Assembly (NCBI GenBank): GCA_963760485.1
Contig: CAVXDP010000015.1
Location: 137,389 to 201,388 of the forward strand
DNA length: 64,000 nucleotides
From: Candidatus Bathyarchaeota archaeon
GTDB taxonomy: Archaea > Thermoproteota > Bathyarchaeia > 40CM-2-53-6 > CAVXDP01
Direction of reading: 5' to 3'
Under the pieces are notes generated by a model. The model ran no database searches. It had not been told where the DNA came from and saw only the letters and a list, made by a program, of their open reading frames with translations. The position numbers and the translations under genes are program-made. This document shows, one piece after another, positions 1,119-47,277 of the stretch (within the stretch, counting starts at the first letter, position 1; every line of letters begins with the position of its first letter).

Positions 1119-2603
1119 TTGTTGAGTGATGGGGGCGGTTCTGCCCGATCTTCTGAAAGAGTTCCATTAAGGAAGATATCAAATTACATTTGGGAAATAC
1201 CTCAATCCTACAAGTCAGGAATGCGTGTTCCTGGGCGAATCTATAGTGATGAACAGCTTCTTGAGAAGATGAAAAGTGACCAGACAATAGAGCAATGCTC
1301 CAATGTTGCTCACCTTCCAGGAATCTACAATTGGGCTGTAACGCTCCCAGACGGCCACGAAGGATACGGTTTTCCAATAGGAGGTGTCGCTGCCACAGAC
1401 TATGATGAGGGGGTTGTGAGTCCTGGAGGTGTAGGATACGACATAAACTGTGGAGTAAGGCTATTAAGAACAAACCTTGAGGAAAAAGATGTTCATCCCG
1501 TTATGTCTCAGCTTTTGGAAGCCTTCTTCAACAATGTCCCATCTGGATTGGGAAGTCGAGGCAAGATAAGAGTCAGCCCAATCGAACTGGACAAAGTGGT
1601 GTCAGATGGCGTTCAGTGGGCTGTGGACAAAGGGTATGGTTGGCCAGAAGATTCAGCGCACTGCGAAGAAAATGGATGCATGGAATCTGCTGACCCGTCT
1701 AGAGTCTCATCCTCAGCTAAGGCACGTGGATGTTCTCAACTAGGGAGCCTCGGAAGCGGAAATCACTTCCTAGAGATAGAGAAAGTTGACAAAATCTTCA
1801 ATCCAAGTGTAGCGAAAAGCTTCGGTATAGAAAAACCGGGGCAGGTATTGATTCTAATTCATACTGGAAGTCGAGGTTTCGGTCATCAGATATGTAGTGA
1901 CTATCTGGTTGTCATGGAGAGGTCCGTTCGCAAATATGATCTGAGACTCCCAGACCGTCAACTTGCTTGTGCACCTTTGAAAAGCAAGGAAGCGGAAGAC
2001 TATCTTCCAGCGATGGCTTCAGCCTGCAACTTTGCGTGGGTCAATAGACAGATGATTACCCACTGGACTCGAGAAGCCTTTGAGAAGGTTTTGGGAAGGT
2101 CAGCCGAGGCGATGAACATGCACGTCACATACGATGTTGCCCATAATATCGCAAAGATAGAAGAGCATGAAATCGATGGAAAGACAGTGAAAGTCTGCGT
2201 CCATCGAAAGGGAGCCACGCGAGCATTTCCCCCTGGCAACGCAAATATTCCATCTGACTATAGAGAGGTTGGCCAGCCAGTGCTACTTCCCGGAAGTATG
2301 GGGACCTCGTCTTGGGTTCTAGTCGGAACAAAAAAGGCGATGGAACTCAGTTTCGGATCCACAGCTCACGGTGCCGGGCGCGTTCTAAGTAGATCGGCGG
2401 CCAAGCGAAGATTCTGGGGTGCCGATGTAAAGAAGAACTTGGAAGACCAGGGGATAATGATTAGAGCAGCTGATATGGCGGTTGTAAGTGAGGAGGCACC
2501 ACAGGCCTACAAGGACGTGGACAGGGTGGTAAACGTGAGTCATGAACTCGGAATAGCGACAAAGGTCGTAAGGCTCGTTCCCCTTGGAGTAACGAAAGGT
2601 TAG
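1119..2603 (+). CDS. rtcB: RNA-splicing ligase RtcB (tRNA ligase)
   Basis: The 494-aa product has RtcB hallmarks: MRVPGRIY, GYGFPIGGVAATD, NCGVRLL, and His-rich metal sites (HTGSRGFGHQ, HNIAKIEEHE). It is adjacent to archease. Confidence 0.9.
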   Translation: MLSDGGGSARSSERVPLRKISNYIWEIPQSYKSGMRVPGRIYSDEQLLEKMKSDQTIEQCSNVAHLPGIYNWAVTLPDGHEGYGFPIGGVAATDYDEGVVSPGGVGYDINCGVRLLRTNLEEKDVHPVMSQLLEAFFNNVPSGLGSRGKIRVSPIELDKVVSDGVQWAVDKGYGWPEDSAHCEENGCMESADPSRVSSSAKARGCSQLGSLGSGNHFLEIEKVDKIFNPSVAKSFGIEKPGQVLILIHTGSRGFGHQICSDYLVVMERSVRKYDLRLPDRQLACAPLKSKEAEDYLPAMASACNFAWVNRQMITHWTREAFEKVLGRSAEAMNMHVTYDVAHNIAKIEEHEIDGKTVKVCVHRKGATRAFPPGNANIPSDYREVGQPVLLPGSMGTSSWVLVGTKKAMELSFGSTAHGAGRVLSRSAAKRRFWGADVKKNLEDQGIMIRAADMAVVSEEAPQAYKDVDRVVNVSHELGIATKVVRLVPLGVTKG

Positions 2604-2630
2604 TACTTACTGGTACTAAGCTAAGCGTCT

Positions 2631-3704
2631 TCACCATATCGTCCGCTTCAGCTTTGATATACCATCTATGGGAGTGGGATCGATTCCCCTAGCAATCGCC
2701 AAATAGACCGAGACATAGTCGCCCATGTAGATAGCGGTTAGTAGTCTTGCCAGTCTGTTTGACCCCGTTCCAACGATTTCTGAAATGTTTTTTATCCCAA
2801 GATTCTTGAGGTATTCTAGGGTTCCCTGAACGATTCGACTCTCCTTCTCATCTTGATTGTCATCTCTGATAAAGATGAATGAGCACCTCCAGAGATCAGA
2901 GGCAAGTTCAGGCCAACTCTCAACCTCGTTATGGCAAATCTCGGGAATAGTATCGAATTTTGAATGGACTTTGCTGTTCTCGTTTAGTTGGTTCTTGAAT
3001 CGTCGGGCAGTGCTTCTCATACGTTCAAGTGAATAGATTATGGGAAACCTGTTGACGAGTCTCAAAGCCATTCTCTTGGCGGGGTTGCCCTCGGTGTCTC
3101 CGGAAATATCTAGTGCCTGCCTGAGTGCTTTCAAATCATCTACAGCGGATTCTATATCCCCGAAATCCCGAATAATTCCGTACTCCAGCAAGATCGAGCT
3201 AACGGCACCAAAAATCCGTGGAAACGCAGCTCTCGGAGGGATGCCTGCTTCAACTCGCGTAATAGGGATGTCATGTTTCCTAGACAATTCTTCTAGTCTT
3301 CCTCCCGAAGTCACTGCGTGAACAAGGCAACGTTTACTTCTAGCTTCGTCGAATTGGCCGAGTGTTTCTCTAGTTTCTCCAGAGTAGCTTATGGCTATCA
3401 CAAGCGTATTCTGATCTGCGAATTTCGGTAGGCGAAGTCCTCTATTCACAACTATAGGAATCGGAACATTCTCCAACAACCAGTCCGAGATGACGTCACC
3501 TGCAATTGAGGATCCGCCCTGGCCAGCGACAATGACCTTTTCTGGCATTGCATGGTTCTTGGTTCCAGCTTCACTTGACTGGTAGCTCCTGATCGTGACT
3601 TGCAGATCTTCAGGGAGATGTTGAATATTCGATAGCATATGAGAGCGATCGATACTTCTCATCCGTGATAAGTCGTCGAGTATGCTTGACATGTCATTTT
3701 CCAC
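2631..3704 (-). CDS. SIS-domain sugar-phosphate isomerase, likely a bifunctional phosphoglucose/phosphomannose isomerase
   Basis: The 357-aa product has an SIS fold signature (VIVAGQGGSSIAGD ... AISYSGET); its length and architecture resemble archaeal PGI/PMI. Confidence 0.55.
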   Translation of the reverse strand: MENDMSSILDDLSRMRSIDRSHMLSNIQHLPEDLQVTIRSYQSSEAGTKNHAMPEKVIVAGQGGSSIAGDVISDWLLENVPIPIVVNRGLRLPKFADQNTLVIAISYSGETRETLGQFDEARSKRCLVHAVTSGGRLEELSRKHDIPITRVEAGIPPRAAFPRIFGAVSSILLEYGIIRDFGDIESAVDDLKALRQALDISGDTEGNPAKRMALRLVNRFPIIYSLERMRSTARRFKNQLNENSKVHSKFDTIPEICHNEVESWPELASDLWRCSFIFIRDDNQDEKESRIVQGTLEYLKNLGIKNISEIVGTGSNRLARLLTAIYMGDYVSVYLAIARGIDPTPIDGISKLKRTIW

Positions 3705-3938
3705 GATTCATGGTGTCTTCTAGATCTAATGTAAGCTTTTTCACCAATCAACAATGAAGGCGAACAATAGAAACAAGGAGAGGATCAAAATGTCTGTGCC
3801 TCTTCTGGAGGTTGATTGAAGAAACCTTAAAATGGTTGATTCTTCGTTGTAGACTGGCTTTCCTCGAGAGTTCCAAGCGAAAGCTCCAAGCAACGAGCTT
3901 GGTCCATCGCTATCAGAATTTCTAGGGGTAAGATTTCA

Positions 3939-4946
3939 ATGGGTCACAGAAAGATACATGGTCCTAAGAGAGGTTCTCTCGCCTACTTGCCTAGGGGACG
4001 AGCTGCAAGTGTTGTTGGTAGAATAAGACACTGGCCTACAGTCGACGGGAAACCTTCTCTTCTTGCGTTTCTTGGGGTGAAAGCGGGAATGACGCATGTT
4101 CTCGCAACGGACAGTAGAAAAGGTTCTATGACATTCGGGAAGGAAATCGTGATTCCAGCCACGGTAATAGAAACCCCGCCTGTGGTGGTGGCTGGAGTTA
4201 GAGCATACGTGGATACTGTAAACGGTATCAGATCGTATGGCGAGGCATGGGCTAGCAATCCTCTGAAGGACTTGGGCAGAGTACTGACACTTGCCAAGGA
4301 GTATCCCACAGAATCTTCTTTGAAGAAGATTGAGGACGTATTAGAGAAGGTTGTGGAGGTCAGGGCTATCCTTGCGACTCAACCGAGACTTACAAAGATT
4401 GGCAAGAAAAGCCCAGACATTTTGGAAGTCAAGGTGGGAGGCGGAACGACAAAGGAATGTTTCGAGTACGCCAAGAGCCTTCTTGGAAAAGAAGTGAAAT
4501 TCCAAGATGCATTCAAGGAAGGTCAGATGGTTGACGCGATCGCAGTGACCAAGGGAAAAGGAATTCAGGGACCTGTGAAACGGTGGGGTGTTAGTAAACT
4601 TTTTCACAAATCGAGAAAGACCGTACGTGGTACTGGAACACTCGGTGCTTGGCATCCTCACTACGTTATGTACTCAGTCCCACGGGCCGGGCAGATGGGT
4701 TTCATGCAGAGAACAGAGTATAACAAACAGATCCTCAAGATTGGAGAGAAGGGCGTGGACATCACTCCAAAAGGCGGATTCATCAGATACGGCATCGTTG
4801 GTGGAGGATACGTCCTTCTAAGAGGAAGTGTTCCAGGGCAACTCAAGCGGGTGATCACCTTAAGAAGGGCTGCTAGACCCCCAACCTTGGAGACAGAGCC
4901 GAAAAAGTTCGAGTACGTTAGCCTAGGATCTACACACGTGAAATAG
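3939..4946 (+). CDS. rpl3: 50S ribosomal protein L3
   Basis: The 335-aa product is L3-like (FLGVKAGMTHV ... GKGIQGPVKRWGV), and it is first in the L3-L4-L23-L2-S19-L22 gene order. Confidence 0.9.
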   Translation: MGHRKIHGPKRGSLAYLPRGRAASVVGRIRHWPTVDGKPSLLAFLGVKAGMTHVLATDSRKGSMTFGKEIVIPATVIETPPVVVAGVRAYVDTVNGIRSYGEAWASNPLKDLGRVLTLAKEYPTESSLKKIEDVLEKVVEVRAILATQPRLTKIGKKSPDILEVKVGGGTTKECFEYAKSLLGKEVKFQDAFKEGQMVDAIAVTKGKGIQGPVKRWGVSKLFHKSRKTVRGTGTLGAWHPHYVMYSVPRAGQMGFMQRTEYNKQILKIGEKGVDITPKGGFIRYGIVGGGYVLLRGSVPGQLKRVITLRRAARPPTLETEPKKFEYVSLGSTHVK

Positions 4947-5757: not shown

Positions 5758-6027
5758 TTGGGAAAGATGACAAGTCGTGAAGTGATCGTTCATCCACTGA
5801 TCTCAGAGGATACCATTACGTTGATTGAAGCCGAAAACAAGATAACGTTTATCGTCAGCATCAAGGCTGATAAGCACGATATCAAGAGGGCTGTAAGAGA
5901 ACTCTACGAGGTAGACGTGGTCCAAGTTACTACTTGCATAACGCCGGACGGACGCAAGAAGGCCTATGTAAGACTCGCTCCTGAGAACAAGGCAGCAGAC
6001 TTGGCCGTAAAACTAGGTGTACTATAG
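5758..6027 (+). CDS. rpl23: 50S ribosomal protein L23
   Basis: The 89-aa product matches the L23 family and sits between L4 and L2. Confidence 0.85.
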   Translation: MGKMTSREVIVHPLISEDTITLIEAENKITFIVSIKADKHDIKRAVRELYEVDVVQVTTCITPDGRKKAYVRLAPENKAADLAVKLGVL

Positions 6028-6038
6028 AGGGGTTAGAT

Positions 6039-6782
6039 ATGGGAAAACGGATAATGGTTAGGAGAAGAGGCAGGGGAACATCTGTCTTCAGGGCTCATAC
6101 TTATGGGAGAATCAGCGAAGCTTCTTATCCACCACTTCCAATCGGCACGTCCGAGACTGTGAAAGGAGTAGTTGAGGATATCTTTCATGAACCGGCCAGA
6201 GGTACGCCATTGGCACTAATCAGATTTGAGAATCGTGAAGTATTCTACATTCCAGCACCAGAGGGGCTGAGCACTCAGAGAGACGTGGTCTTCGGTCCAA
6301 CTGCCAATGTGGAAATTGGAAACATTAAACCAATCAGCTCAATCCCAGAAGGCACCATGATATGCAATATTGAATTTCGCCCCGGCGACGGTGGAAAGAT
6401 TGCGAGAGCTTCGGGAACATACGCGACAGTGGTTGCACATACGCCTATAGGAACCGAGTTGAAATTGCCTTCTGGAAAATCCATTTACATCGGGGATCAA
6501 TGTCGCGCGATGATTGGAGTTGTAGCCGCAGCGGGTAGAACTGAGAAACCATTTCTCAAAGCTGGGTCGGTCGAGTTTCTCATGTCCTCGAGAGGTAGAA
6601 GATGGCCAGTTGTCAAGGGACAAGCTATGATTTCAGCCTCACACCCGTACGGAGGAGGTAGACACAAACACGCTGGAAAGCCAACTACAGTAGGCAGAGA
6701 TACTCCGCCGGGCAGAAAAGTTGGATTAATAGCTGCGAGACAGTCAGGAAGAGCAAAGAGAAGAATGCGAATCGCGAGATAA
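6039..6782 (+). CDS. rpl2: 50S ribosomal protein L2
   Basis: The 247-aa product has L2 motifs (GRNSRG-like GGGRHKHAGKP, SGRAKRR). Confidence 0.9.
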   Translation: MGKRIMVRRRGRGTSVFRAHTYGRISEASYPPLPIGTSETVKGVVEDIFHEPARGTPLALIRFENREVFYIPAPEGLSTQRDVVFGPTANVEIGNIKPISSIPEGTMICNIEFRPGDGGKIARASGTYATVVAHTPIGTELKLPSGKSIYIGDQCRAMIGVVAAAGRTEKPFLKAGSVEFLMSSRGRRWPVVKGQAMISASHPYGGGRHKHAGKPTTVGRDTPPGRKVGLIAARQSGRAKRRMRIAR

Positions 6783-6832: not shown

Positions 6833-7238
6833 ATGCCTAAAGAATTCTTATTTCAGAGGATACAACCTCGAACAACTCCAACAGACATCGATGGACGACT
6901 TCATAAGACTACTTCCGGCAAGACAGCGTCGATCATTACTAAGAGGACTTACTGATGATCAGAAGAAACTGCTGGAACACATCAGACAAGTGAGACGCGC
7001 ATCCGAAAAAGACAAGAAATCCCCGATAAGGACACAATGCCGAGATATGATAATCCTTCCCGAAATGGTGGGGTTGACTATACTAGTCCACAACGGCAAA
7101 GAGTTCGCTCAGGTTGACATAACGCCAGCGATGATCGGGCACTATCTCGGTGAATTCTCCAGCCCAATCAAGAAGGTATCCCATGGAACTCCAGGAATCG
7201 GAGCATCTAGGAGCTCAATGTACGTTCCATTGAAGTAG
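6833..7238 (+). CDS. rps19: 30S ribosomal protein S19, with its N-terminus in a different frame from the body (single-base indel near 6848-6856)
   Basis: ATG at 6833 gives MPKEFLF, which matches the S19 N-terminus MPKEF.YRGY. The body [32 protein letters not shown]...GHYLGEFS is offset by +1 after tttc. The ORF track starts only at the internal Met at 6891. Confidence 0.8.
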
Positions 7239-7302
7239 TCCAGTACCACCTTTTCTATTTGATGACGAGCACCAGAGCGATCTTGTTGTTCATGGATTAA
7301 GC

Positions 7303-7554
7303 CTAATTTGACTTCTTCTTTGCGACACTGTAAGCAAGGTATCCACACACTGAAGCAATGACTAGGATAGTCAAAGATAGCATAGGTGCAAAGGTTGTCT
7401 TCACCGCAGCACCTGCATTCGCCTTGACACTTGTTTCCCTAAGAATCTCATATGTGGCAGGCGTGGTAACGTGTGGAATCACCTGAAAGTAGGTGAAGGT
7501 CAAAACAACGGCCAGAAGTAGCCCAAATGCTGCGTATCCAGCTTCCCTTTTCAA
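7303..7554 (-). CDS. Small membrane protein (two predicted TM helices), hypothetical
   Basis: The 83-aa ORF has hydrophobic segments. It is inserted on the opposite strand between rps19 and rpl22. Confidence 0.3.
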   Translation of the reverse strand: MKREAGYAAFGLLLAVVLTFTYFQVIPHVTTPATYEILRETSVKANAGAAVKTTFAPMLSLTILVIASVCGYLAYSVAKKKSN

Positions 7555-7626
7555 ATTCTCCCTCCCTCTTCTTTCAATTCAAATCGGCTCATTTAATTCT
7601 AGACTCTAGAACGACAAGTTCACTTT

Positions 7627-8088
7627 CTAGAACAGCTTCTCCTTCCAAATTCTTACAGTCTCAAATATCGACGTGGCCGATGCGATCAAGCCGAAGATCA
7701 CTGCCATCGTGTCTGGAACCAATGAGAGCCATAACGATCCCATCAGATACAACATGAGCGAGGCCGAGAAGAAAACGGCGTAGAAGAGATAGCGTGGTAG
7801 AACAAGCTTCCCGAACTTTAGAAAGAGGCGGAGTGTACCAACTTTGACCTGTTCAATGAGACGATACTGGCCGTACTCGTCCTTTTGGATAACGCCTAAT
7901 TCCCTTAGTTTTTCAAGATGATGAAGGGCTGTGCTTGGGCTTGCAAGCCCACAGGCTCTCTGGACCTCTCTGACCCCAACAGACTTCTGAGATTTGAAGA
8001 CTTGCCAGTATATTCGAAGTGTGGTTCCACGAAGTTCCGCCTCTACCCTTTGAAGCCCTTCTTTATTCTCCGACATTTTGCCACACAC
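7627..8088 (-). CDS. Membrane-anchored winged-helix transcriptional regulator (wHTH N-terminus plus two C-terminal TM helices)
   Basis: The N-terminus has a wHTH-like segment LRIYWQVFKSQKSVGVREVQRACGLASPSTALHHLEKLRELGVI; the C-terminal portion is hydrophobic. It lies opposite-strand inside the ribosomal-protein cluster. Confidence 0.45.
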   Translation of the reverse strand: MCGKMSENKEGLQRVEAELRGTTLRIYWQVFKSQKSVGVREVQRACGLASPSTALHHLEKLRELGVIQKDEYGQYRLIEQVKVGTLRLFLKFGKLVLPRYLFYAVFFSASLMLYLMGSLWLSLVPDTMAVIFGLIASATSIFETVRIWKEKLF

Positions 8089-8276
8089 TGCTCCATTAGC
8101 ATACTATACTCGTGGAATTCTAGGATAGTCGTGTTCTGACCATATCAAAAGCCTTTTTATTACCCAGTATTCTTCTAGAACGCAACTTCGAAAGTGGATA
8201 AGGTAAAACGTCATGCCAGAATGGGGTTACTCGGTCAAGGGGCTGGATCCCGATAAGAGTGTGAAATGCGCAGGTC

Positions 8277-8681
8277 GTGAACTCAAAATATCACCCAAGG
8301 CCGACCGTGGAAATCTGTCACACAATAAGAGGGATGAAAATCGCTGAGGCAAAGACCCTGCTCGAAGAAGTGATCAAGAAGAAACGGGCTATAGCCTACA
8401 GGCGATACAAGAAAGAGGTTTCTCACAAGAGCCTGCCAGAAAGATGGTACGCAGGGAAATACCCCGTAAAGGCCGCAGATCGAATTTTGATGTTACTGAA
8501 CGAACTTGAGGCCAATGCCGAGTACAAAGGCCTTGATTTGGAGAACCTACGAATTATTCACGCAGCATCTCATAGGGGACGAAAGATTAGGGGTTACACT
8601 CCTCGAGGTTTCGGTAGGGCTTCTCCATCCTATGAGACACTAACTCACGTTGAACTTGTAGGATACGAGGCTTCTTCGTAA
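8277..8681 (+). CDS. rpl22: 50S ribosomal protein L22
   Basis: The 134-aa product is L22-like (KAIAYRRYKK ... ILMLLNELEANAEYKGLDLENLRI...ASHRGRKIRG). Confidence 0.85.
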   Translation: MNSKYHPRPTVEICHTIRGMKIAEAKTLLEEVIKKKRAIAYRRYKKEVSHKSLPERWYAGKYPVKAADRILMLLNELEANAEYKGLDLENLRIIHAASHRGRKIRGYTPRGFGRASPSYETLTHVELVGYEASS

Positions 8682-10214
8682 TTAGTTCCCTTATTGACCG
8701 AGCAAGATGTCACTAGGTCCTCTGTATCCCTCTTTGGAAGGTCAAGGTCTCTATGGGCCCAGATACCTTCCTTAAGTAGCTTTGGCGCTCGCAACCTAGA
8801 TGAAATGGGCTTATTTCGAAGGATTTTACTTTGACTTCCTTTGTGAATTTGCTTCTTTTAACCTAATGAGCTAGTTTCAGGATGTTTGCTTGCTTGCCCG
8901 TTATGTAAGGATCCAGAAGACGTACCTTAGACCTTTCAATGCAGTGATATTACAGAAGGTCTTTAGAGGCTTGCATCCAGCAGTATGAAGAATCCATAAG
9001 AACGTCTTGTAGAACGCAAGAAGCAGCAGAAGAAGGAACGCATCGTGCTTTGCTAAGGCTTTGCTTATGTTCTATCGTTCCTTGAAGGGCCTTTATCTGC
9101 TTCTATTGTGAAAGAGCTAGGCATATCAAGGCATAGTAGAAGAGAGCATAAGCAAAGAAGTCAAACGCTTTCAGCATACTCCTAAGTCAGTACAGTCTGC
9201 CATCTACTAGTATCATATTTTCTGGCCTTTGTCTGCTTGTAACCATATGCTATGATCATTGTACTGGAATGATGTTCTTTGAATGCTCTTGGTAGCACAA
9301 GAGCATCTCATGTGAGTTCCTTTGATGGTCTCAGAGAGTAGAAAGAGCTAATTGTCGCAAAATGAGATTTTTAGACAAATTTACAAAGGAGCTGTAAGCC
9401 AGTTTTGGCTATTTACCTCATTTCTCGCTTATTTGTTCCTGTAGACCTTTCGCTTAGAGAGGTTCAGTCCAAAATGAGCCTCATGAGCCTATCTAGAGAC
9501 TTCAGTCGAAGGAGAGGTTCCAGAGGCGCGTCCTGCTTGTTCGGAGGAGGAAAAGAGCGTATTGGTGATGGTTTCTAATGTCCTTCGAGGGCTTTGCGGC
9601 AATCTGGTTATTCTTCAAGGGTCTTCTGGTGCTTCTTCGGCTTTCTTAGAGCTTGATGTCTTCTTTGCAGGCTCTCTGAATCCTTGCTAAGGAGCTTTGC
9701 TGTCTTCTTGAGCCTCTTCTTCTAAGGGATAGATATTCATGATAATAGTTCTTGGTGAAGCCTTCAGAGTGTACTAGAAGCCTAGTTCTCCTGCTCACCT
9801 ACGTTTTCACTGCCTGTCATCGCCTTCATCACTGCTTATCATCACTTTCACCAATGCTCATCACTGCCCTCGTCACTGTCTTCGGGCTTGTGTACACATT
9901 TGCCTGTATCCGTCACTCGAAGTTGACTATTAGACGCCTAGCACTTGTTGTGGTTGAACTTTGAACCTCTGTGGTGGTTAAGCTTGTAGTTATGCCAGTA
10001 CCGACAATCGTCCCAGCCTGTGAGAAACCTGATCGAGGCTCCGCAGTCACAGACTCCCCAGATGCTGCAGTTAGCAATCGACGGAGTCCACGTACAGGTT
10101 CCAGGCGTAGCGCTTGACCATCTCATCGTTTGTGTTTTTCTCCTTCAGTCGTTCCCATTGCCCGGTAGCATCAAAAACTTGAACTGGAATACGGTAATCT
10201 AATAGCTCTTCAAA

Positions 10215-11072
10215 ATGACTTTCGCTGCAGCTAATGGGAAGGAAAAAGTAATGAGTTTACCACCGTCGACATGGCAAGAGCATTGGTTCGAACATAATCA
10301 ACTAGTGAAACTCAAGTACTATGACGATTTTGTTGCAGTGTACTTCGATGACGACATGAGAGAAGCAGAGTCTTCTTGGCTCTATCAATACATGAGCACT
10401 CTTGCACAATATACAAAGTCACACTATGGCGATATTCGTTCGGATAGACTATACGCCATCTTCCACAAGGGGAAATACGGAGGAGGTCACCCCTCATACT
10501 ACTACGATGGAAGCCATGACTTCAGAAATGTGATTGATTGCGGGTCTGATAATTGGCAGGCTCCATCTACTTCTAGTCCATCTTGGCAATTTGATGGTCC
10601 TTCTCATGAAGTGGCTCACATAATCGAGTCTACGGTACACGGAAAACACAACTCTCCATGTTTTGGTCTATGGAATGATAGCAAGTGGGCAGAATTCTTC
10701 CAATATGGCTTCTACAAAGACATCGGTATGACGACATATGCTCAGACTAAATACAACGAATTCATGTCAAAATCTGATGATTATCCTCGGCCGGGCACTC
10801 AATGGTTCAGAAAGTGGTTTTCAATCCTCTATTCTACTTATGGAGGATCCAAGTGCATGAGAGAGTTCTATCATATGATAGATCAGTATTGGCCATATCA
10901 AAACAAGTCGATGAATTGGGGAGAGTTAATTCATTTCATGAGCGCAGCTGTTGGAACTGATCTAAAGTTTCCAGCTGAAGCTGCATTTGGCTGGTCTAGT
11001 GAATGGGAAGATCAATACCAACAAGCCATGCTCGTCTACAAATTTACTACTACGCCTGACGGCTCAACGTGA
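10215..11072 (+). CDS. HExxH-motif protein, a putative zinc metallopeptidase with no signal peptide; first cargo gene of the island
   Basis: The 285-aa ORF contains SHEVAHIIESTVHGKH (HExxH). After the stop at 11070, a second frame stays open to a TAA embedded in repeat A (11237-11239), so the true 3' end is uncertain. Confidence 0.45.
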   Translation: MTFAAANGKEKVMSLPPSTWQEHWFEHNQLVKLKYYDDFVAVYFDDDMREAESSWLYQYMSTLAQYTKSHYGDIRSDRLYAIFHKGKYGGGHPSYYYDGSHDFRNVIDCGSDNWQAPSTSSPSWQFDGPSHEVAHIIESTVHGKHNSPCFGLWNDSKWAEFFQYGFYKDIGMTTYAQTKYNEFMSKSDDYPRPGTQWFRKWFSILYSTYGGSKCMREFYHMIDQYWPYQNKSMNWGELIHFMSAAVGTDLKFPAEAAFGWSSEWEDQYQQAMLVYKFTTTPDGST

Positions 11073-11216
11073 CTGGGCCTTATCATCATGATGATGGGGT
11101 TCGGCTTACCGCTATTCCTGCTCTCGCTGAATGGTCTGATGCCTTAACGGGTAAGAACGCCGAAAAATTCTACAAATTCCAGAGTATACCAGTACTCATC
11201 CACTGTCTCCATATGG

Positions 11217-11259
11217 AGAGAACAGTTTAACCCCGACGATAACGTGGGACAAGATCCCA
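11217..11259 (+). repeat. Island repeat copy A: conserved box GAGAACAGTTTAACCCCGACGATAACG plus hairpin TGGGA-CAAGA-TCCCA
   Basis: Direct sequence reading: a 5-bp perfect stem immediately after the conserved box. Confidence 0.8.
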
Positions 11260-11337
11260 GTCGAGGCGCTATTTCGGCTTTTGACCTGTATTGCCATGTT
11301 CTTTTGGTCGCGGTACGAAGGTATTCCTTAGATCTGT

Positions 11338-11486: not shown

Positions 11487-11630
11487 CTATTTTTCCTTGG
11501 CAACCCACGTTTTTACGGATTCTTCGACAGCTCTAGATAGGTCGCCCTTTTTCCCACCAAATCTCTCAATAGTCTTAAACCTTAACTTCTTTTCCAGCTC
11601 ATCAGAGAGTTCCACACTGATTCGACCCAT
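11487..11630 (-). CDS. Ribbon-helix-helix (CopG/Arc/MetJ-like) small protein, 47 aa
   Basis: Hand-translated: MGRISVELSDELEKKLRFKTIERFGGKKGDLSRAVEESVKTWVAKEK. The ISVxLxDEL N-terminal beta-strand and following helices are typical of RHH antitoxins/regulators. It is below the ORF-track size cutoff. Confidence 0.4.
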   Translation of the reverse strand: MGRISVELSDELEKKLRFKTIERFGGKKGDLSRAVEESVKTWVAKEK

Positions 11631-12310
11631 TCCAATCACCAACATCAATCTTTATGCAGGATTTGCAGACGTCAGGCGTTCTTCCAGTAAGCAAAATCGT
11701 GGATGCCCGCTGTTGCTTTTCTTGTTATCATTTTCATTCACCCAACGTTTGCTTACCCACCTATCCATATATGTGCTTACCAGCCTATAAGGATATTGGT
11801 TTAATGGTCATCGGGGTTAAACTACAGTTCCTCAACTCACGAGTGTGCAATATACGGCGCCTAAGAGATCTAATGCGATTCGCTAGGGCCTGTTGTTTTC
11901 TGCTCTCTTTCTTTCTCTCATCTTCTATCTATCAGGATCGTAAGGGTGCTTCGGGCTGGTTTCCAAAATAATAATCTGGATTAGAAGGAATAGGTATTGT
12001 ACAAGCGGGTTATAGAAATATCATAGAAGGTGGAAGACGTGAAACATCGAAAGCATGAGAAAGCTCAATCCTACGACAGAATGGGTTACCTCGTATTATT
12101 CAAGGATGGAACAATTCTACCACTTGTGGACAAACCCAACGCCAAAGAAATCGAGCAAATCTTCTGTTAGACTAGAGTCACCATTATTCTGCTAACCCGT
12201 TTGTATGTAAGTCCGGGCCGGCCGAGACAACAACAGATTGTCTGTGAATCCTCTTCTTCAATGTAACATGAGATCTGTAATGTGAGGGACGGCAAGATTA
12301 TATTGGGAAG

Positions 12311-13511: not shown

Positions 13512-13900
13512 TTGCTCATAGAGATGGCATCTTCGGATTCGCTAAGGTGTTGGGTCGTGAGAAGAGAATAGTTCTACTTTGTTTTTCTCGGTTGGCAAGC
13601 AAACTGGCGAGTGCAAGATACTCTCTGTCAGTATCGCTTACCAGTCTTCTTCACTGGGTTGTTCGTCCTCTTCTTCCACGTCTTTTTCTTCGTCCATTCT
13701 GATTATCACCGAAACGAGCGACCATCCCTTCTAGCTAATAATACTTATGATTACTAAGCATGGGCTTTTTCCGGGTGAACAAACTTTCAACAAGAGTAGC
13801 ACGTTTTCTAGGACACCAATTCGATGAGAGAAAACAAATCGCTGAAAGAATGGCTGAGTTCTATGATAAGCGAAGTGCAGTGGTACACGGTGAGAATGTT

Positions 13901-13944
13901 GAAAAGCAGTTTAACCCCGACGTTATCGTTGGTTAAGATCCCAA
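13901..13944 (+). repeat. Island repeat copy B: GAAAAGCAGTTTAACCCCGACGTTATCG plus hairpin TTGG-TTAAGATC-CCAA
   Basis: Direct reading. The stem sequence differs from copy A but pairing is retained. Confidence 0.75.
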
Positions 13945-14045
13945 TCCTCTTGGGTAACGTTTTGCCAGGTTGGTTTCGGTTAGCATCAGACGATCTCTCA
14001 CTCAACAGAGCAAACTCAATTGTAGCCAGCATCGAATTGAGTTGG

Positions 14046-14608: not shown

Positions 14609-14723
14609 TGCGTAGAGCGCCTAACTTGTCGTAGGTTTCCATCTTCTTCTTCGACTATATGCCCATTCAATCTGATCCGGTGCAGTCCAGAAGCATATAC
14701 CTGCGCAATCACAGCATGTATAC

Positions 14724-15044
14724 TCAGCGAAACCAATGTTGAAGTTCGATGACATTGCCCTCGGGGTCAGTAACGTAGACGATTCTAGCCTTACCTGCAC
14801 CATCGATCTCCGTGGTAACGATTTTTCCAACATCGCTGCCACCTGCTGCAATCACTGCATCATGTGCTTGGTCCACATCATCTACTGCAAACGCAATGTG
14901 GCCAAAACCGGGGCGATTGACAGCGGTTCCAGGCTTTTCGGTCTCAACATCGTACTGAAAAATCTCGATCGTTGGACCAGTGTTACCGTAACCCGGCGCA
15001 CGCAAGTGTGCGCCACGAATATGAGCAGATCTTATGCTTGTCAC
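14724..15044 (-). CDS. Glyoxalase/bleomycin-resistance (VOC) family protein
   Basis: The 106-aa product has HIAFAVDDVDQAHDAVIAAGG ... DPEGNVIELQ, typical of the VOC superfamily. Confidence 0.7.
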   Translation of the reverse strand: MTSIRSAHIRGAHLRAPGYGNTGPTIEIFQYDVETEKPGTAVNRPGFGHIAFAVDDVDQAHDAVIAAGGSDVGKIVTTEIDGAGKARIVYVTDPEGNVIELQHWFR

Positions 15045-15284
15045 GTCATCCAGCCACTGACCTGAGAGATCACGCTCAGGCGGAACTAGTGCGCAGCCAA
15101 AGACCTCAATGTAAAACTTGGCAAGACGTTTCCAATCTTGCGCAACGATGTTCGTGTGAACAAATCTAGCATTTGAAACAGTTCCCGTTTTCTACTCCTC
15201 CTCAACCACTACCATATGGACTGAACTGGGATCTAGACGATGTTCATGTATTACTCCTGTACACGATTGAAAACGTTTTGTCCC

Positions 15285-15321
15285 GAAAAACAGTTTAACC
15301 CAGACGATAACGTGAGATAGG
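15285..15321 (+). repeat. Island repeat copy C: GAAAAACAGTTTAACCCAGACGATAACGTGAGATAGG, with a degenerate hairpin
   Basis: Direct reading. The box has C to A at one position and the downstream hairpin is lost. Confidence 0.65.
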
Positions 15322-15431: not shown

Positions 15432-18400
15432 ACCCCCAAGCAACGGATCAGTACTTTATACTATGGTCTAACGATTTATCTGCCACCGGAATTCAAGCCG
15501 CCAGTGGACTGGGCAACGGCTGACACTTCGAATATTATTACGACCATTACAAACGATTACAGCGTCATCTACGTTTGGAAGGCCGATGTGAAAGATCCCT
15601 TCGGACCGGGCTGGTGGGTTATCTACATACGTGCCCCCGGCGGTGGAGAATCCTCACACTCCATTATGATTTTCTCGCATGATAACGGATACAAGGAATG
15701 GTACTATGTTCGTGTGAACGGTATGACTGCGCCTAAGATTGCTGGTCGATACTTTTTCAAAATGTTCCTTGGCGAAAGCTATCCAATCATGAATGCGGTT
15801 AATCGTGACGGTTCCACCGTGAACCCGGACAGATTGCCGGTGCTGAACACGATGCCTGCGGAGAACTGGCCTGTAATGCTTGTGAAAGGTGAAGTTGATC
15901 CAGGCATTATTGAAGGGACAATTCGCTACGGTGCATGGAACCAAGCATTATACAATAAACCAATTCAACTTCCAGGCCGAGTTCGTGCGGTTGGAGTTGC
16001 AGATGACCCCTATACTGGTGCTAGTACAGGTCGTGCAGTTGAAGCTCGTGGATACTTTAACGCCTCAGCGAAAGGTCACTATGAGGTTGAAGGTGTAGCT
16101 CCAGGGGTCTATGACATTTATGCGAGTGCAGCTGGATACCCGGAAATGAAAGTTGCAAGCGGTGTAAAGATTATTGCAGGTAAAAGTTTCCACATGGATT
16201 TTCTATTGCAACCAGGTCCAATCATTACAGGTGTAATCTATAGCAAACACAGCTTCGGAGAAGTTAGCATGGTCGAGTACACGTCCAGTAACAGTAGAAA
16301 TCTATGACAGCAACGAATGGCCAGTAGCGAAACCAGGTTATGGCTGGGATTCTGCTGGAAATATCATTTGAACAGGGAACAGGCGAAGTATGGACTGATA
16401 TGGGTTACAAAGTTGTTAATGCACACCTGAAGAGTTTCTCACCAATCAATTTGACCCAAGCACCATTCACAAGTTATGTAGACTGGAAACGTAATCTATG
16501 ATCCAGCTAAAGGCTACGCTGATCTTCTGCACCCTGGCACTGTTTCGTTTTCTAGTCTAAGGGAATGTTCCTGGTGGACAACCTAAGCTAGTTGCATTTC
16601 CATGGGAGGGTCCCAAGAATCCATCGAGTTGCTTTACCATCAAGTTTCCTGGGGTCATGAATGAGTACTCTGATATTCCAGATGATCTAACGTCTCAGAA
16701 AGATAATTATGGCTTGTTCAATGGGGTTGGTCCAGCGCAGTACTGGTGGGTTGACAAACTAGGCCAATGGACGAATGGTGGCGGATCAAATAGTTTCCGT
16801 TATCAATTTGGAATCAAAGGATACTACGGTGCACCAATGGAATTCGACGGTCACATGCCACAAGTCTGTGCAAGCTGGGTTAACGGGTTGACCGCAGGCA
16901 CATACTACCTCCGTTCATGGATCAATGGCTACGTCCAAACTGATGTTAGCGGCACATACGTAGATTATCCATTCAGTGTCGCGGCACAGGAATGGGCTGG
17001 TGACATTAACACTCCAATGGACCTTGAAACGTCAAGCTGGATCAACAAGACTGTACACTTCCACGATTTGCCAGGCACCTTGCAGACAAGTCCGATTCGC
17101 GGACCAGATCCCTACAGGTACATGATCGCTGAAGCATACGACGCAGACAATGTGCTTGTTGCAATGAACTTTACACAGGTTCCAGTGAAAGACCGATACG
17201 GCAATCTAGTGAGTGACTGGAACATTACATTGAACGGATTCGGAATGGCAGGGCCGGTCTACATTATTCCGTCTGATTTATGGGTTGACTGAAGTGATTC
17301 TCGATGGTATTCCACCGGGCATGAAGTTCTTCCTGTACAGGTATAGGCATATCCGTGATTATGGCATGATGCCAGGCACTTACACGATCCGCGTCTACAT
17401 GAGAGGCTATGTGCAACAAGAATTTGAGATGGCTTCAATTAGTTTGAGCCAAAGTCCAGCGATAATCAGCAACCACATGTATCGTGGAGCAGGAATCAAC
17501 ATGACTATCTACTCAATTGACTGGGAGCATCCACGCGTCGACAGGCCATGGAACTTTCCATGGCGATGACATAAGAGTTCACGTGTTCAATGAGGCAGGA
17601 GACGACATGGGCCTACGTCAGATGGTGGGATGGGACGACAGGCCAACTATAGATACTTGGGTTGTGCCCAACACAGACTCAGCGGTAGCACAGTAGTTCC
17701 AAGCAAGGATTGGCCTGCACCAGCCCGGCTAGTAAGCTCAAGTTCAACGGTTCAACAGTTCTAGAAGTTTATGGACCGGACACGGGTGGTGGCTGGTTCC
17801 CATTCCGCTCTTAACTTTACACTTCCAATCTTAACGGCCCTGGCAGTACAGATGCGGGGACTGGTATATGGCTTGAATTCGGTTATTATAGAAGCGGGTT
17901 CTTGACAAGTCCAAACCTGTACAGAACTGCTGATCTGAAGACAAGGGTTGCCTTAGAAACTGGTACATACGACGCTTAAGGCGTGGACGCTTGGTTACGT
18001 CCAGAAGAAGGATATCACAGTCTACGCGCAGAAAGGATCACAGGCAGATACCAAGCTCAACCTAGTCATAGGCGTGAACATGACGGTTAACATCAAATTC
18101 AAGAAGGAAGGCATCTTCACACACGTACCATTTGACCAATCCTTTAGGATAAGAGTCTTCGACGATAACAATGGGCTAGTTGCCACATGGTACACCAGCT
18201 ATCTTCGATGATAGTACCTTCTACCATGGCGTGCTTCCACGATGCGGTCAACAGAGCCTACGGTGGATTCATGGAAAGGGGACCAGTGACATAATTCTGA
18301 GCGACGAATGAAGACTTTGGTCAGAGACAGCACCACCGACCTACAGGTTGTACTGGCTGGAAACTACTACTACTTCGAAATCAACAGCTATGGCTATGTT

Positions 18401-19062
18401 CCATTTGAAGAAAGAAACTATGCTCTATCCAGGGCTAATGGAATCGATGGGTGGCCGAATTATCAGGGTACTTGGCGCATCGAGGTTGATGCAGTCAACC
18501 TGGTACTATAGCGACAAGTGGTTCCCAGCTCCTCCAGGCCTGCTACTTGGTGAAAGCTACCACATAATCAACGGCGTCGAAGGACCGTACAACGGCATGT
18601 GGAAGTATAACCATCTTGGCCCATGGGAACAGAAGATGGTTGTTACAGTGCCAAATGCTCACTTGGGAGCTGAAGCAAGCGTCGTCTTCGAACTAGACCA
18701 ACGAGGCCTAGTCTCAGGACAAATCGCAGGATTCAGTTGGAGTGACGAACTCCGTCCAACAAGTTGGGCAACAATCACAGGCAGCTGGTGCAGGCGGGAC
18801 CTTCACAGTCTACTCGGCAGACGGATACTATGACATGTACCTTCCAGCAGGCAGCTACGAATTCAGCGTCATGGAAAGCCCAGGACACGCAGCAAAGAGC
18901 GCAAGCATAACCGTCAGTACAGGCCAACAAGTGACAGGATATAGCTTCTACTTAGAAAGAACCAACGTTCCAATTCCAGAATTCGGACCAGTCATAGCAC
19001 TAGTAGCAGCACTCGGAGCATCACTGTACGTGCTACGGAGAAACCGCAAAAAGGGCAACTAG
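15432..19062 (+). pseudogene. Giant surface protein (about 1200 aa if joined) with a PEF-CTERM-like C-terminal sorting tail. It is fragmented across at least six ORFs in three frames: 15504..16307, 16657..17292, 17285..17569, 18308..18511, 18348..18833 and 18742..19062
   Basis: Coding-like translation hops between frames, with stretches of 350 and 740 nt lacking any long ORF. The C-terminus is ...NVPIPEFGPVIALVAALGASLYVLRRNRKKGN (PEF, then TM helix, then basic tail). The disruption density is several-fold higher than in neighbouring genes. Genuine decay or mis-assembly of a hypervariable gene cannot be distinguished from sequence alone. Confidence 0.4.
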
Positions 19063-19191: not shown

Positions 19192-19234
19192 GAGAACAGT
19201 TTAACCCCGACGATATCATGGGATAACATCCCAT
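19192..19234 (+). repeat. Island repeat copy D: GAGAACAGTTTAACCCCGACGATATC plus hairpin ATGGGA-TAAC-ATCCCAT
   Basis: Direct reading. It has a 6-bp perfect stem and lies about 130 bp after the PEF-CTERM gene end. Confidence 0.8.
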
Positions 19235-19929
19235 CGGCCCCCTCATCGCTAGGAATGATTCTAACAGGTAAGAGTGGCGATTTCAATCCTCTGAAACTAC
19301 CACACGATTACGTACCTCACCTGAATTTCCACTGCAGACGCGACAATTTCCTCTGCAGAAAAAGGCTCGTGATGGAGTATTAGCCTAGCTCCAAAGCCGC
19401 TGGGAGCGCCTTCAGACATAGCGTTCAGAGCAATTCCACCAGAAACAGAAAACGAAGCATGAACTGAAACTGGAAGTTCGATGCTTATCGTGCAATCCCC
19501 AATTCATTACTTTGCCTCTTTGATAATGTACTCTACAGCAGACAAGAAGCTATCTGCAACAGCTGTTGGTTCTACTTCCTTTTCTTGGAGTTCTGCAAGG
19601 TATTTGTTTCCGTGTCCAGTAAGAGGCTGTTTTGCACCCGGCATTCTTGCCCATAACAATGTCAGAAAGGTGATCGCCGATAGCTCATGACCCTACTGAT
19701 TCAATTCCGTACAGTGTAACTATTTTGTCGTTGCGTTTAGTGCTGGGGGGCGTTTGAGGCCGATAGATTTCTGACTGCTACTCGATACAGAGTTTTACGT
19801 AATGATACATAATTTTAGTTTAGAGCTAGGCGCCGAAGCCTTCTCGGCTTATATACAACAGAAACCTATACAATTTTTTAAACTAAACCTAACCATTAGT
19901 TGTCTTTGCTTTACTTCTGAGGGATCCAG

Positions 19930-24103: not shown

Positions 24104-24412
24104 ATGAACAGAATATCGATACTGGTGGACAAGAAGATGGCTGCATATCTCGAGTTGCCGAAGAACATAGGCATCTCGGTGGCGTCGGGGAGAAATGACG
24201 CAGTACGCAGATTCAAAAGGCTGCGTTGTGATAATGACATTTCAATTATCATGGTTTCTAGAAGAGTCTTGGATTGGATAGAACAGCCCCTGTCGATGTG
24301 CACTGAGCAAGGCGGATGTCCGTTTGTTGTATCTCTTATCAACAAGGGTGGCCCAAGGACCCAGGCTAGACATGTTTCAAGGTTACTGGGAAAAATTGTT
24401 GAATCAACCTAG
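24104..24412 (+). CDS. V-type ATPase subunit F-like paralog
   Basis: ISILVDKKMAAYLEL...IGISVAS...DISIIMVSRRVLDWIEQ aligns with the bona fide AtpF at 63410 (VAIIADKYLATGFRLAGV...YDIIIMTEKLAMALKRE). It stands alone next to the P-type ATPase. Confidence 0.4.
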   Translation: MNRISILVDKKMAAYLELPKNIGISVASGRNDAVRRFKRLRCDNDISIIMVSRRVLDWIEQPLSMCTEQGGCPFVVSLINKGGPRTQARHVSRLLGKIVEST

Positions 24413-27194
24413 GGTCGCCGGCTAGTTCTCTTTTTGTCAACAGATATACTTGAAGCGGTGATTCGAGTCAGGTGCTTTCGAACCTCCTCGGCTACTAGTG
24501 GAAGAGGCGCGAGTAGGAGGAGAACCGCCCAGTTTTGGATTGTTAGTGGATACGTTCCAAAAATGGTCTGGAGAGGAGGAAGGTAGACGATTCCAGATAA
24601 TATTATGATTTGGGATGCAATCCCGAACCAGATCCACTTGTTACTGAAGGGCTTCACCTCTGAAATTGACGTTCTTCCAGTTCTACACGCAAACAGGTTC
24701 GCAGATTGCGCCACGACGATTCCAGCAAGGGTCATCGTGGTCCCCTGCCGATAAACTGGGTTATCTGAAGCTAGTCCCAACCCAAATCTCCATCCTCCAG
24801 CAATCCAAACAAGGAAACAACCAGTCAAGGACACTAGAGACACGAATATTCCAAGGAAAAGAGATCTTGCGATCGTTTTGGAATCGAAGAGTCTTTCTTT
24901 TGGACTTCGTGGAGGTCTATTCATGATGTGAGGTTCTGGGGGTTCGATGCTCAAGGCCAATGATGGAATGACCTCTATACCCAAATCGATTGCAAGAACT
25001 TGAGTGACAAGTAGTGGGAGTGGGATTCCGACTAGGACAAAAAGCAGGTAAGGTATCAGTTCGGCCCAGTTGTGCGCGAAGACATACGTTATGAACTTTC
25101 GTATGTTGTCATAGATTGCTCTGCCGCCTTCGATAGCCTTTGAGATCGATGCAAAACTATCGTCAAGCAAGATCATATCCGCAGATTCTCTTGCAACATC
25201 GGTGCCAGCCACACCCATCGCTACACCTATGTCCGCTTTCTTCAAAGAGGGCGCGTCGTTGGCTCCATCACCTGTGACCGCGACAATCTCTCCCATCGAC
25301 TTGAGTAGGGACACGATCCGCATCTTGTGTTCTGGCGTTGCTCTTGCAAAGATTATTTCTCCGGCATCAATCTGCCTGATCAAGTCGGGCTCAGTGAGTT
25401 TGTCCAGTTGGGCTCCAGTCAATACCGTACATTTTTCCGTCTCAACGATCCCTACTTGTCGGGCTATCGTGAGTGCGGTAGGTCCATAATCTCCCGTAAT
25501 CAAGATGACCCTTATGCCCGCCTTCTTCGCGTCCATGACGGCTTTTCTAACCTCGGGTCTGGGCGGGTCTAGGATTCCAAGAAGACCAATGAATACAAGA
25601 TCTGTTTCAACGGTATCGACATTCCATTCATGCAAGTCGGGTGGTAGTTTCCGATAGGCCACTGCCAGAACGCGGAGACCCTCCTCACCAAGTCTCCTTT
25701 TTTCAAGATTTATCTGATCAATATCTTCCTGAGCTAATGGGTGCACCTCAGACCCGTCAAGAACATGGGAACAGACATTGAGTGTCTCTTTTGGAGCTCC
25801 TTTGACGTAGGCGATGTTGCCGTCCTTTGTCTTGTGAATTGAAGACATCCTTTTTCTTATGGATTCGAATGGCAAGAGTTTGACTAATGGTGCATCAACT
25901 AGTTCGTTCTGCACGTTCAAATCCATCTTCAACGCCAATGTCAGAAGCGAGCCTTCAGTCGGGTCTCCAAGTACTCGCCACTGGCCACTTGTATCCGTAG
26001 GTGGAATCAGTTTCGAACTATTGCAGAGCGACGATGCCTTGAGGAGTATTTCTACACCTTTTCTCTCGCCGAGCTCTAGTTTCCGATCTCCAATGAGTAG
26101 TTCTCCTGATGGGCCGTAACCCTCGCCGGTCACGTCAATCGTTTCACCATCTATCCAGATCTTCTTGACTGTCATTTCTCCTTTGGTTATTGTTCCCGTC
26201 TTGTCGGTGCAGATCACTGTGGTGCTGCCGAGAGTCTCCACTGCTGAAAGCCTCTTGACTAGAACATTCTGCCGGGCGAGTCGAACAACTCCGAGGGCTA
26301 GCGCGGTTGACACAGTAACCTGCAAACCCTCTGGAACACATGCAACCATGACGCCTATCATGAAAAGGAATCCTGTTAGTGCATTCATGTGGAACCAGAG
26401 TGTATCCACCATGAAGAATAGTACCCCAACAGTGATCGCGATCACAAAGTCGATCTTGCGGCGTGCGATATCTGGTTCTGAAGTGGACTAACCGTATCTT
26501 CTATTGACTCGCTCATACCGGCAATTTTTCCAAATTGAGTTCTCATTCCGGTGTCATACACAACCGCTCTTCCAAAGCCCGACGCCACGGTGACTCCCAT
26601 GAACACAAGGTTCGTTACGTCGAGCCAACTTGCGGTTTCTGCCTGCATGGGATCAGCGTCTCTGGGTTGCGCCTCCGACTCTCCTGTTAGGGCGACGTTA
26701 TTCGTAGAGAGATCAAAAGCTTCCACAACACGTGCGTCTGCTGGAACGCGATCACCTTCATTTAGAATCAGTAAGTCTCCAGGGGCGATATCCTCAGCCT
26801 GGATTACCTTGGTTTCACCGTCCCTTACAACAGTCGCACGAAAAGGCAGGAATCTTTTAAGGGCCTTTACCGCCCTTTCAGCACGATATTCTTGAACGAA
26901 ACTCAATATTGCATTTAGAATAACCACCACAAGAACTGAAATGCCAAACTCAACCATGCCAGTTACGAAAGCCAAAATAGCGGCTATTATCAGGAGAGCG
27001 CTAAAGAGATCTTTGAACTGAGAAAGAAACTTGTTGAGAGCTGCTGCCCGCTTTGGTTCAGACAGCCGGTTCGGGCCGTACTCCTGCAGTCTCTTTTGAG
27101 CTTCGTCTTCTGTTAATCCTGTTGATCTTGTCTCTAACCTCTTGAGTACATCTGAAACCGGCCATGTATAGATTGGCAAAGAGTCCTTCACCAC
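24409..27194 (-). CDS. P-type cation-transporting ATPase (about 925 aa), split into two ORFs (26442..27194 N-terminal, 24409..26445 C-terminal), consistent with a single-base indel near 26445-26470
   Basis: The N-terminal ORF carries TGES (NVALTGESEAQP) and the TPLQ-like SPLQNQI segment. The C-terminal ORF carries PEGL, DKTGTIT, TGDGANDAPSL and GVAGTDVA. The ORFs overlap by 4 nt in different frames. Confidence 0.8.
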
Positions 27195-47163: not shown

Positions 47164-47277
47164 GGGCCGGTAGTTCAGTCTGGCATACCTGTCGAAGGGC
47201 CAAGGAACGTCCGGTTTGCAAGGTTCAGCTTAACCCAACAAGCCGGAAGGTCGCGGGTTCAAATCCCGCCCGGTCCA
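47164..47277 (+). tRNA. tRNA-Ala (anticodon TGC) with apparently two introns (in the D-loop and next to the anticodon loop)
   Basis: The acceptor GGGCCGG pairs with CCGGTCC, including a G3:U70 pair (Ala identity element). The T-arm is GCGGG-TTCAAAT-CCCGC. The anticodon stem TCCGG...CCGGA has loop TTTGCA(A). The D-stem GTTC...GAAC is separated by an insert of about 20 nt. Total length is 114 nt. Confidence 0.5.

Follow-up and report, generated by a model that had tools for sequence, protein, structure and literature searches.

The ribosomal-protein gene cluster of a Bathyarchaeia genome is broken directly downstream of rpl22

This report concerns a break in the ribosomal-protein gene cluster of Candidatus Bathyarchaeota archaeon, found in a 64-kb stretch of its DNA that we call the window and in whose coordinates all positions are given. 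From L3 to L22 the window shares gene order and orientation with the archaeal S10-spc cluster; rps3, the gene for S3, does not follow, and rpl22, the gene for L22, is succeeded by 1.5 kb of DNA that holds no open reading frame (ORF). This is a true breakpoint inside a conserved cluster, situated directly 3' of rpl22. We regard it as likely that it marks a genuine and evolutionarily recent chromosomal rearrangement, and that the stretch behind it is unconstrained DNA at the edge of a variable region. Gene identities were assigned by Pfam, and L-numbers denote related genome or metagenome loci and strain contigs. The argument turns on three features:

8213-8681, plus strand: rpl22, with a Pfam-confirmed main ORF at 8277-8681; an extra A at 8304 yields frames starting at 8213 and 8277
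8682-10214, no strand assigned: ORF-free non-coding stretch without coding signal or match to a protein or RNA family
9696-10154, no strand assigned: 459-nt segment of that stretch, present in the window, L152 and L153, absent from L141 and L151, and holding a 22-nt repeat

The 'universal core' of the archaeal S10-spc cluster reads uS19-uL22-uS3-uL29-uS17-uL14...uL15 (PMC10833476); the same source, which says nothing of Bathyarchaeia, describes clusters of Heimdallarchaeia that are split at other points. In relatives of the genome studied here the cluster continues beyond L22 with S3-L29-Rpp29-S17-L14-L24-S4e-L5-S8-L6-L32e-L19e-L18-S5-L30-L15-SecY, whereas uL22 and uS3 are unlinked within the window. 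When the proteins S3, L29, Rpp29, S17, L14, L24, S4e, L5, S8, L6, L32e and L19e of a close relative were compared with the whole window by tblastn, none found a match (best E 0.13). This bears out an earlier reading made from the DNA letters and their ORFs (the sequence-only reading), which had seen no rps3 after rpl22. Three-frame reading and tblastn likewise gave no S3 or later ribosomal gene hidden by frameshifts in 8682-10214, and the conserved S3 promoter and leader of the relatives have left no trace in the window. At the DNA level, similarity to the relatives breaks off only a few bases from the stop codon of rpl22, with none beyond 8672. Placing the breakpoint by aligning the start of the stretch with the L22-S3 spacers of relatives was tried and given up, since the spacers vary too much and nothing past the stop codon is similar.

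The arrangement is not shared by the nearest relatives. In L144-L149, whose L22 is 89% identical, L22 is followed after 256 nt by S3 and then by the cluster through to SecY; in L001-L004, S3 lies about 240-1240 nt after L22. Since relatives with an 89%-identical L22 keep S3 256 nt downstream, the separation of L22 and S3 postdates that split and is derived. An ancestral arrangement, with related genomes lacking S3 beside the same neighbours, is therefore not what the closest relatives display.

A break of this kind can also be produced on the computer, by joining two unrelated pieces of genome at about 8.7-10.2 kb, and the sequence-only reading had named such a mis-join as a possible undoing of its own claim. 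Independent contigs speak against this. Other samples supplied two short-read contigs, L142 (ENA ERZ27247591) and L143 (JGI 3300069122), that encode an intact L22, 99% identical to the repaired protein of the window; they run from the winged-helix (wHTH) gene upstream of rpl22 through rpl22 and then 456 and 193 nt into the stretch. At the other end, L152 (ENA ERZ27247924) spans 9539-11262 unbroken, from the stretch into the next gene, L153 spans 10033-11197, and L151 covers 9400-9465 and 9512-9695. With independent contigs across both joins and only 9139-9399 outside their cover, a chimeric join can in practice be dismissed. With the junctions found in independent contigs and S3 retained in relatives, the claim of a breakpoint inside the conserved operon stands.

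What speaks for an artefact is the quality of the local consensus, for which three genes offer hints. One extra T in the run 6851-6853 of rps19 puts the conserved start MPKEFLF.. out of frame with the remainder of the protein, whereas in relatives the two are read in one frame (MPKEF.FRGY.LEQLQ..); none of the contigs found through L23 and the 83-amino-acid (aa) protein downstream of rps19 reaches this site. The extra A at 8304 in rpl22 makes tblastn return two high-scoring segment pairs in different frames, again cutting a conserved N-terminus from the body, so that in both genes the first 20-30 conserved residues are lost from the main ORF. L142 and L143 lack this A and encode an intact 155-aa L22, so the extra base either arose in the assembly or is a mutation private to this genome. 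The third case is a P-type cation ATPase (24409-27194, minus strand), which one frameshift at 26442-26445 divides into ORFs of 250 and 678 aa; the break falls midway through the E1-E2_ATPase domain (profile positions 4-120 and 126-181). Exact look-ups of the L2, AhpC and P0140 proteins found no contig. Such isolated frameshifts do not explain the stretch, as 1.5 kb without an open frame would need many of them and the independent contigs agree with the window. An assembly artefact is thus largely refuted, and we consider it barely credible.

If the junctions are real, what is the DNA between them? Across all six frames, the longest stop-free run in 8682-10214 is 71 codons, which equals the expectation for random sequence of the same composition. 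Its hexamer coding score (-0.17 to -0.29) lies at the level of its own shuffles (-0.166 +/- 0.068), compared with -0.14 to +0.19 for held-out genes, and the earlier statement that some 1.5 kb here lack an ORF is fully confirmed. Six-frame searches found neither a Pfam match nor a homologue among 5.8 billion proteins. No similarity was found to phage and plasmid collections, no DNA similarity to 140 related loci, and no copy or repeat of the sequence elsewhere in the window. In composition the stretch is skewed as had been noticed (AT skew -0.21 to -0.31 over 9251-10000, lowest around 9500-10000; GC 41-47%), while 'low-complexity' overstates the case. Much the same can be said of the tandem-like repeat placed at about 9840-9895: a repeat exists, but it is weak. 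TRF gives it a score of 59-60, with 79-80% matches among the 2.1-2.3 copies of a 22-nt unit at 9807-9863.

Comparing strains yields positive evidence that the stretch is free of constraint. Over the flanks (wHTH gene, intergenic region and L22) the window and L142 differ by 3 mismatches in 870 nt (99.7% identity); in the stretch they differ by 18 mismatches and 1 indel in 457 nt (96.1% identity), a divergence more than ten times that of the flanks. Strain indels in the stretch measure 1, 1, 4, 5, 12 and 459 nt, and no reading frame could have survived them. The stretch is most likely unconstrained non-coding DNA, junk without a function.

Several points weigh against the account given so far. 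With rps3 absent from the window, a single insertion of more than 55 kb would be an alternative, if an improbable one. No independent contig covers 9139-9399, a segment in which an artefact could still be sought, and the single-base frameshifts in rps19, rpl22 and the P-type ATPase betray imperfect local sequence quality. The lack of function is read from negative results, and recombination with a more distant strain may account for part of the stretch's faster divergence. Finally, a 150-nt window on the plus strand, 9357-9506, folds better than its shuffles (z -3.4); for the extended segment 9340-9530 z is -2.45, and 2 of 200 shuffles fold as well as it does.

This folding signal speaks for a long regulatory leader or a non-coding RNA encoded in the stretch, as does the fact that intergenic regions of such length are uncommon in the window. 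The remaining evidence points the other way. Over 38 windows on both strands the mean folding z is 0.00, and Rfam, scanned at the gathering threshold and up to E 5, returned chance-level matches only (E 2-4), such as mir-135 with 16.7 bits against a cut-off of 59.2 and sR5 with 14.6 bits against a cut-off of 40. An RNA under selection is also hard to reconcile with 3.9% divergence next to flanks at 0.3%, with many indels between near-identical strains, and with a 459-nt block that is dispensable. The option of a non-coding RNA locus, raised by the sequence-only reading, finds no clear support, and we hold it to be highly improbable.

A different origin for the same DNA would be genes decayed beyond recognition, for example those of an element once inserted after rpl22. 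This is a claim about origin and is compatible with the rearrangement that we favour. A neighbour at 15474-19050 is visibly decaying, relatives carry inserted genes at the same site, and the minus strand of 9750-10250 is purine-rich like the coding strands of this region. On the other hand, the six-frame searches yield nothing, tblastn with the inserted genes of L002, L005, L065 and L066 is empty in the stretch, and the coding score does not rise above shuffles. Translated similarity to an intact homologue, with frame breaks, is seen at 15474-19050 and not in 8682-10214. Decayed coding DNA, another option that had been put forward, could not be demonstrated; that the stretch holds the last remains of earlier inserted genes is possible, but we think it rather unlikely.

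To understand why the cluster could break at this place, it is helpful to look at the same place in other Bathyarchaeia. In 49 of the 65 loci that show at least 1.5 kb beyond L22, S3 abuts it with no more than 30 nt between the two. The distance is 200-800 nt in another 9 and 1.2-2.1 kb in 4; in the remaining three S3 is not seen within the sequence visible (2.2 kb in L062, 4.1 kb in L064 and 10 kb in L066). Loci with such spacers fall in the sub-clade nearest the window. There, some 150 nt upstream of rps3 are conserved (L001-L004, L063, L067-L073 and L144), beginning with a ATTATATAATG or ATATATAATG box; this TATA-type box is followed by a strongly conserved segment of about 60 nt, and a GAAGGGAA box precedes the ATG. 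We infer that the ATTATATAATG/ATATATAATG box and the GAAGGGAA box are the putative promoter and ribosome-binding site of S3 itself. No conserved RNA structure was found in the S3 leader of these relatives, which gave 4 trivial pairs and no covariation.

The spacer has taken up foreign DNA more than once. In L005 (10840-12730), L065 (5350-7400) and L068 (10460-12480) an insert of about 1.7 kb lies between GAGATAG[GA]ATTATAA repeats of the S3 promoter box and carries the C-terminal fragment of a tyrosine recombinase (Phage_integrase, E 1.8e-8) together with an NYN-domain or MazE/MqsA-like gene. Elements of the SSV type, borne by an integrase, split their own integrase gene on insertion, and with its integrase fragment, cargo and promoter-box repeats the insert resembles an element that targets the S3 promoter and breaks up its own integrase gene in the same way. 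In L002 the spacer holds a 220-aa gene on the opposite strand. L064 and L066 have nearly the same L22 and share nothing downstream of it; in L066, which has no S3 for 10 kb, an intact homologue of the surface protein whose gene has decayed at 15474-19050 of the window lies 6 kb downstream. Taken together, the inserts, the L002 gene and the divergence of L064 from L066 mark the L22-S3 spacer as a recurrent landing site. As a separate observation, the minus strand of L064 encodes proteins of 569 and 206 aa at 2257-4845 that have no Pfam matches and appear virus-tail-like by eye.

From these relatives a course of events can be sketched. In the class, rpl22 would already have stood alone, flanked on one side by the conserved wHTH gene, which points away from it. 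In the nearest sub-clade, rps3 came to lie 240-260 nt beyond it, presumably under its own TATA promoter, which would mean that rpl22 and rps3 are transcribed separately. The spacer, to judge from the repeated uptake of foreign DNA in relatives, would have been a permissive spot. In the lineage of the window, the block from rps3 to secY would then have been separated from rpl22 and now lie at another place in the genome or at a distance of more than 55 kb, and the 1.5-kb stretch would have taken its place as the left edge of a gene-poor variable region of about 11 kb (8.7-19.9 kb).

The direction of the event, a rearrangement and not a very large insertion, is suggested by what lies further downstream. 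One could picture a single island that begins at 8682, extends past the end of the window and has rps3 behind it: the site does take up insertions in relatives, and the first 11 kb look accessory. From 19.9 kb on, however, the window carries housekeeping genes, among them nrdD (anaerobic ribonucleotide reductase), an MFS transporter, QueT, the P-type ATPase, AIR-synthase-type purine synthesis genes, TldD/PmbA and a tRNA. No integrase was seen in a Pfam scan of ORFs of at least 110 aa at 10.2-26.4 kb, and the integrase fragment of the relatives has no tblastn match in the window. Direct repeats at the edges of the region were not found, the window holds no copy of the S3 promoter box that could flank an insert, and no tRNA target was found beside rpl22. 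Core genes from 19.9 kb on and the lack of a recombinase among the scanned ORFs would favour a rearrangement over a giant insertion, which we judge improbable. The tRNA itself (47164-47277), 114 nt long and scoring 51 bits in Rfam, presumably contains an intron; run in bacterial mode, ARAGORN reports no tRNA in the window.

The sequence-only reading had also offered the boundary of an island as an explanation of the stretch, and of its proposals this one is supported: the stretch bounds a variable, accessory-like region. By a rough estimate, some 40% of 8.7-19.9 kb is taken up by ORFs of 110 aa or more. Two genes and four copies of a 40-nt motif stand out here:

10215-11072, plus strand: protein with an HExxH motif (SHEVAHIIE), 285 aa, 390 homologues
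15474-19050, plus strand: decayed gene of a CarboxypepD_reg-type surface protein, in frames 3, 1, 2, 2, 3, 1
11218-11262, plus strand: 40-nt motif, copy 1 (GAGAACAGTTTAACCCCGACGATAACGTGGGACAAGATCCCA), at whose 3' end the homology of L141 and L151 stops
13907-13946, plus strand: 40-nt motif, copy 2
15289-15319, plus strand: 40-nt motif, copy 3
19192-19236, plus strand: 40-nt motif, copy 4

Named homologues of the HExxH protein are mostly secreted proteins of bacteria, including Chitinophaga, Paenibacillus and Fimbriimonas, and often bear secretion or carbohydrate-binding domains; the hexamer usage of the gene is atypical for this genome, which suggests that it was acquired across domains. In L152 and L153 a 5-nt indel removes the ATG at 10215, and database gene calls are 273 aa long; the true start is probably the ATG at 10251, giving 273 aa. 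The surface-protein pseudogene, in at least 5 frame pieces, was found by tblastn with the intact proteins of L118 (1259 aa) and L066 (868 aa), and its CarboxypepD_reg label comes from the Pfam result for the latter. By eye, the gene-poor region also contains a glyoxalase/VOC-like candidate ORF at about 14650-15050 (minus strand), a ribbon-helix-helix-like candidate of 53 aa at 11487-11648 (minus strand) and a 58-aa ORF with an R-x4-H motif at 13760-13936 (plus strand).

In being gene-poor and strain-variable and in holding a gene of mostly bacterial affinity, the region resembles known genomic islands. It differs from integrase-borne ones in that no integrase, direct repeat or tRNA target was found beside rpl22 and S3 does not resume.

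The four copies of the 40-nt motif (CAGTYTAACCCNGACGNTANC) might point to another mechanism. All have the same direction and each follows a gene or pseudogene; 3 of the 4 match a 27-nt core pattern for which 0 matches are expected by chance. Contig L152 ends at the 3' end of copy 1, the flanks of the copies are mutually unrelated, and the sequence of L141 beyond the motif matches none of the other post-motif flanks in the window. Integron gene-cassette arrays have reportedly been found in Archaea, and the array shares with them the orientation of the motif after genes or pseudogenes and the end of strain homology at a motif. The attC sites of integrons are imperfect inverted repeats of 57-141 nt that fold as single strands. 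The window differs here: folding the DNA of the four copies on both strands gave no shared long hairpin (z -0.1 to -1.7), and an attC-like hairpin was rejected. An integron-type recombinase, for which no dedicated search was run, was not seen among the Pfam-scanned ORFs, and the unrelated flanks are a further difference. That the motif is the C-terminus of a repeated gene was likewise tried with a negative result, and neither viral contigs nor other loci yielded the motif. As a long shot, the variable region might have been built by an undescribed cassette-shuffling system of Bathyarchaeia that recombines at this motif, with the ORF-free stretch as its entry platform. If so, it would be a cassette system integron-like in its logic, with a different kind of site and an undescribed recombinase.

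On the other side of the break, the cluster itself comprises the following genes:

3939-4946, plus strand: rpl3, intact, with Pfam and full-length tblastn matches to relatives L001-L011
4950-5753, plus strand: rpl4, intact, supported in the same way
5758-6027, plus strand: rpl23, intact, supported in the same way
6039-6782, plus strand: rpl2, intact, supported in the same way
6833-7238, plus strand: rps19, with a Pfam-confirmed main ORF at 6891-7238 and the extra T described above
7303-7554, minus strand: 83-aa protein without a Pfam match, with homologues in the same place in L001-L004 (36-57% identity)
7627-8088, minus strand: 153-aa winged-helix (wHTH) protein with weak Pfam matches to LexA_DNA_bind (E 7.5e-6), HTH_5 and HTH_20
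8089-8212, no strand assigned: intergenic region between the wHTH gene and rpl22, in which a TTTTTATTA box lies some 50 nt ahead of the ATG of rpl22

Pfam and coordinates confirm the order that had been read from the sequence: L3-L4-L23-L2-S19 are contiguous and co-directional on the plus strand, with L22 further on. S19 is not directly followed by L22, as two minus-strand genes stand between them. A direct S19-L22 succession is likewise missing from 61-62 of the 73 Bathyarchaeia loci, from genomes and metagenomes, whose sequence reaches far enough upstream of L22. Each of the two encoded proteins has two hydrophobic segments, read directly from the sequence; those of the wHTH protein are C-terminal and would anchor it in the membrane, and its gene points away from rpl22. 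The intergenic region is identical to L142 and L143 in 124/124 and 123/124 bases, and its TTTTTATTA box is a putative promoter of rpl22.

These two genes had been taken for an insertion. Their presence is beyond dispute, and the event is not one of this genome. L2 is 82-87% identical to that of uncultured Bathyarchaeia metagenome-assembled genomes, and the ten closest genome loci follow the window's order: archease, RtcB, PGI (minus strand), L3, L4, L23, L2, S19, wHTH (minus strand), L22. The small membrane protein, also on the minus strand, lies between S19 and wHTH in the closest four of the ten. In 62 of the 73 loci the wHTH gene, encoded on the opposite strand, is the immediate upstream neighbour of L22, down to an L22 identity of 59%. 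With this distribution the S19-L22 'insertion' is ancestral, and the gene is an old, conserved, class-wide non-ribosomal resident between rps19 and rpl22. That its product might regulate the ribosomal genes is only a guess.

The cluster has also been opened elsewhere in the class. rpl2 has no rpl23 upstream and no rps19 downstream in 18 of 47 Bathyarchaeia genome loci (L015, L017-L019, L021, L025 and others), and L118 has the order L4-L23-S19 without L2. Other lineages have thus broken the cluster at other points.

What does this mean for Bathyarchaeia? Ribosomal gene order serves as a near-invariant landmark in binning, in marker-gene phylogeny and in arguments on operon constraint. Bathyarchaeia differ from the S10-spc cluster by one or two opposite-strand non-ribosomal genes between uS19 and uL22, and they break the uS19-uL22-uS3 adjacency in two ways: through the class-wide wHTH gene, and through the unlinking of uL22 and uS3 in some lineages. 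Once S3 had gained what seems to be its own promoter, its link to L22 would have become dispensable and the spacer a landing place for foreign DNA. For the window itself the practical lesson is modest: the break, though genuine, is of an ordinary kind, and annotation should leave these 1.5 kb free of genes and RNAs. The more interesting points are comparative: a class-wide wHTH gene inside the cluster, a spacer reused by mobile DNA, an isolated L2, and a 40-nt motif.

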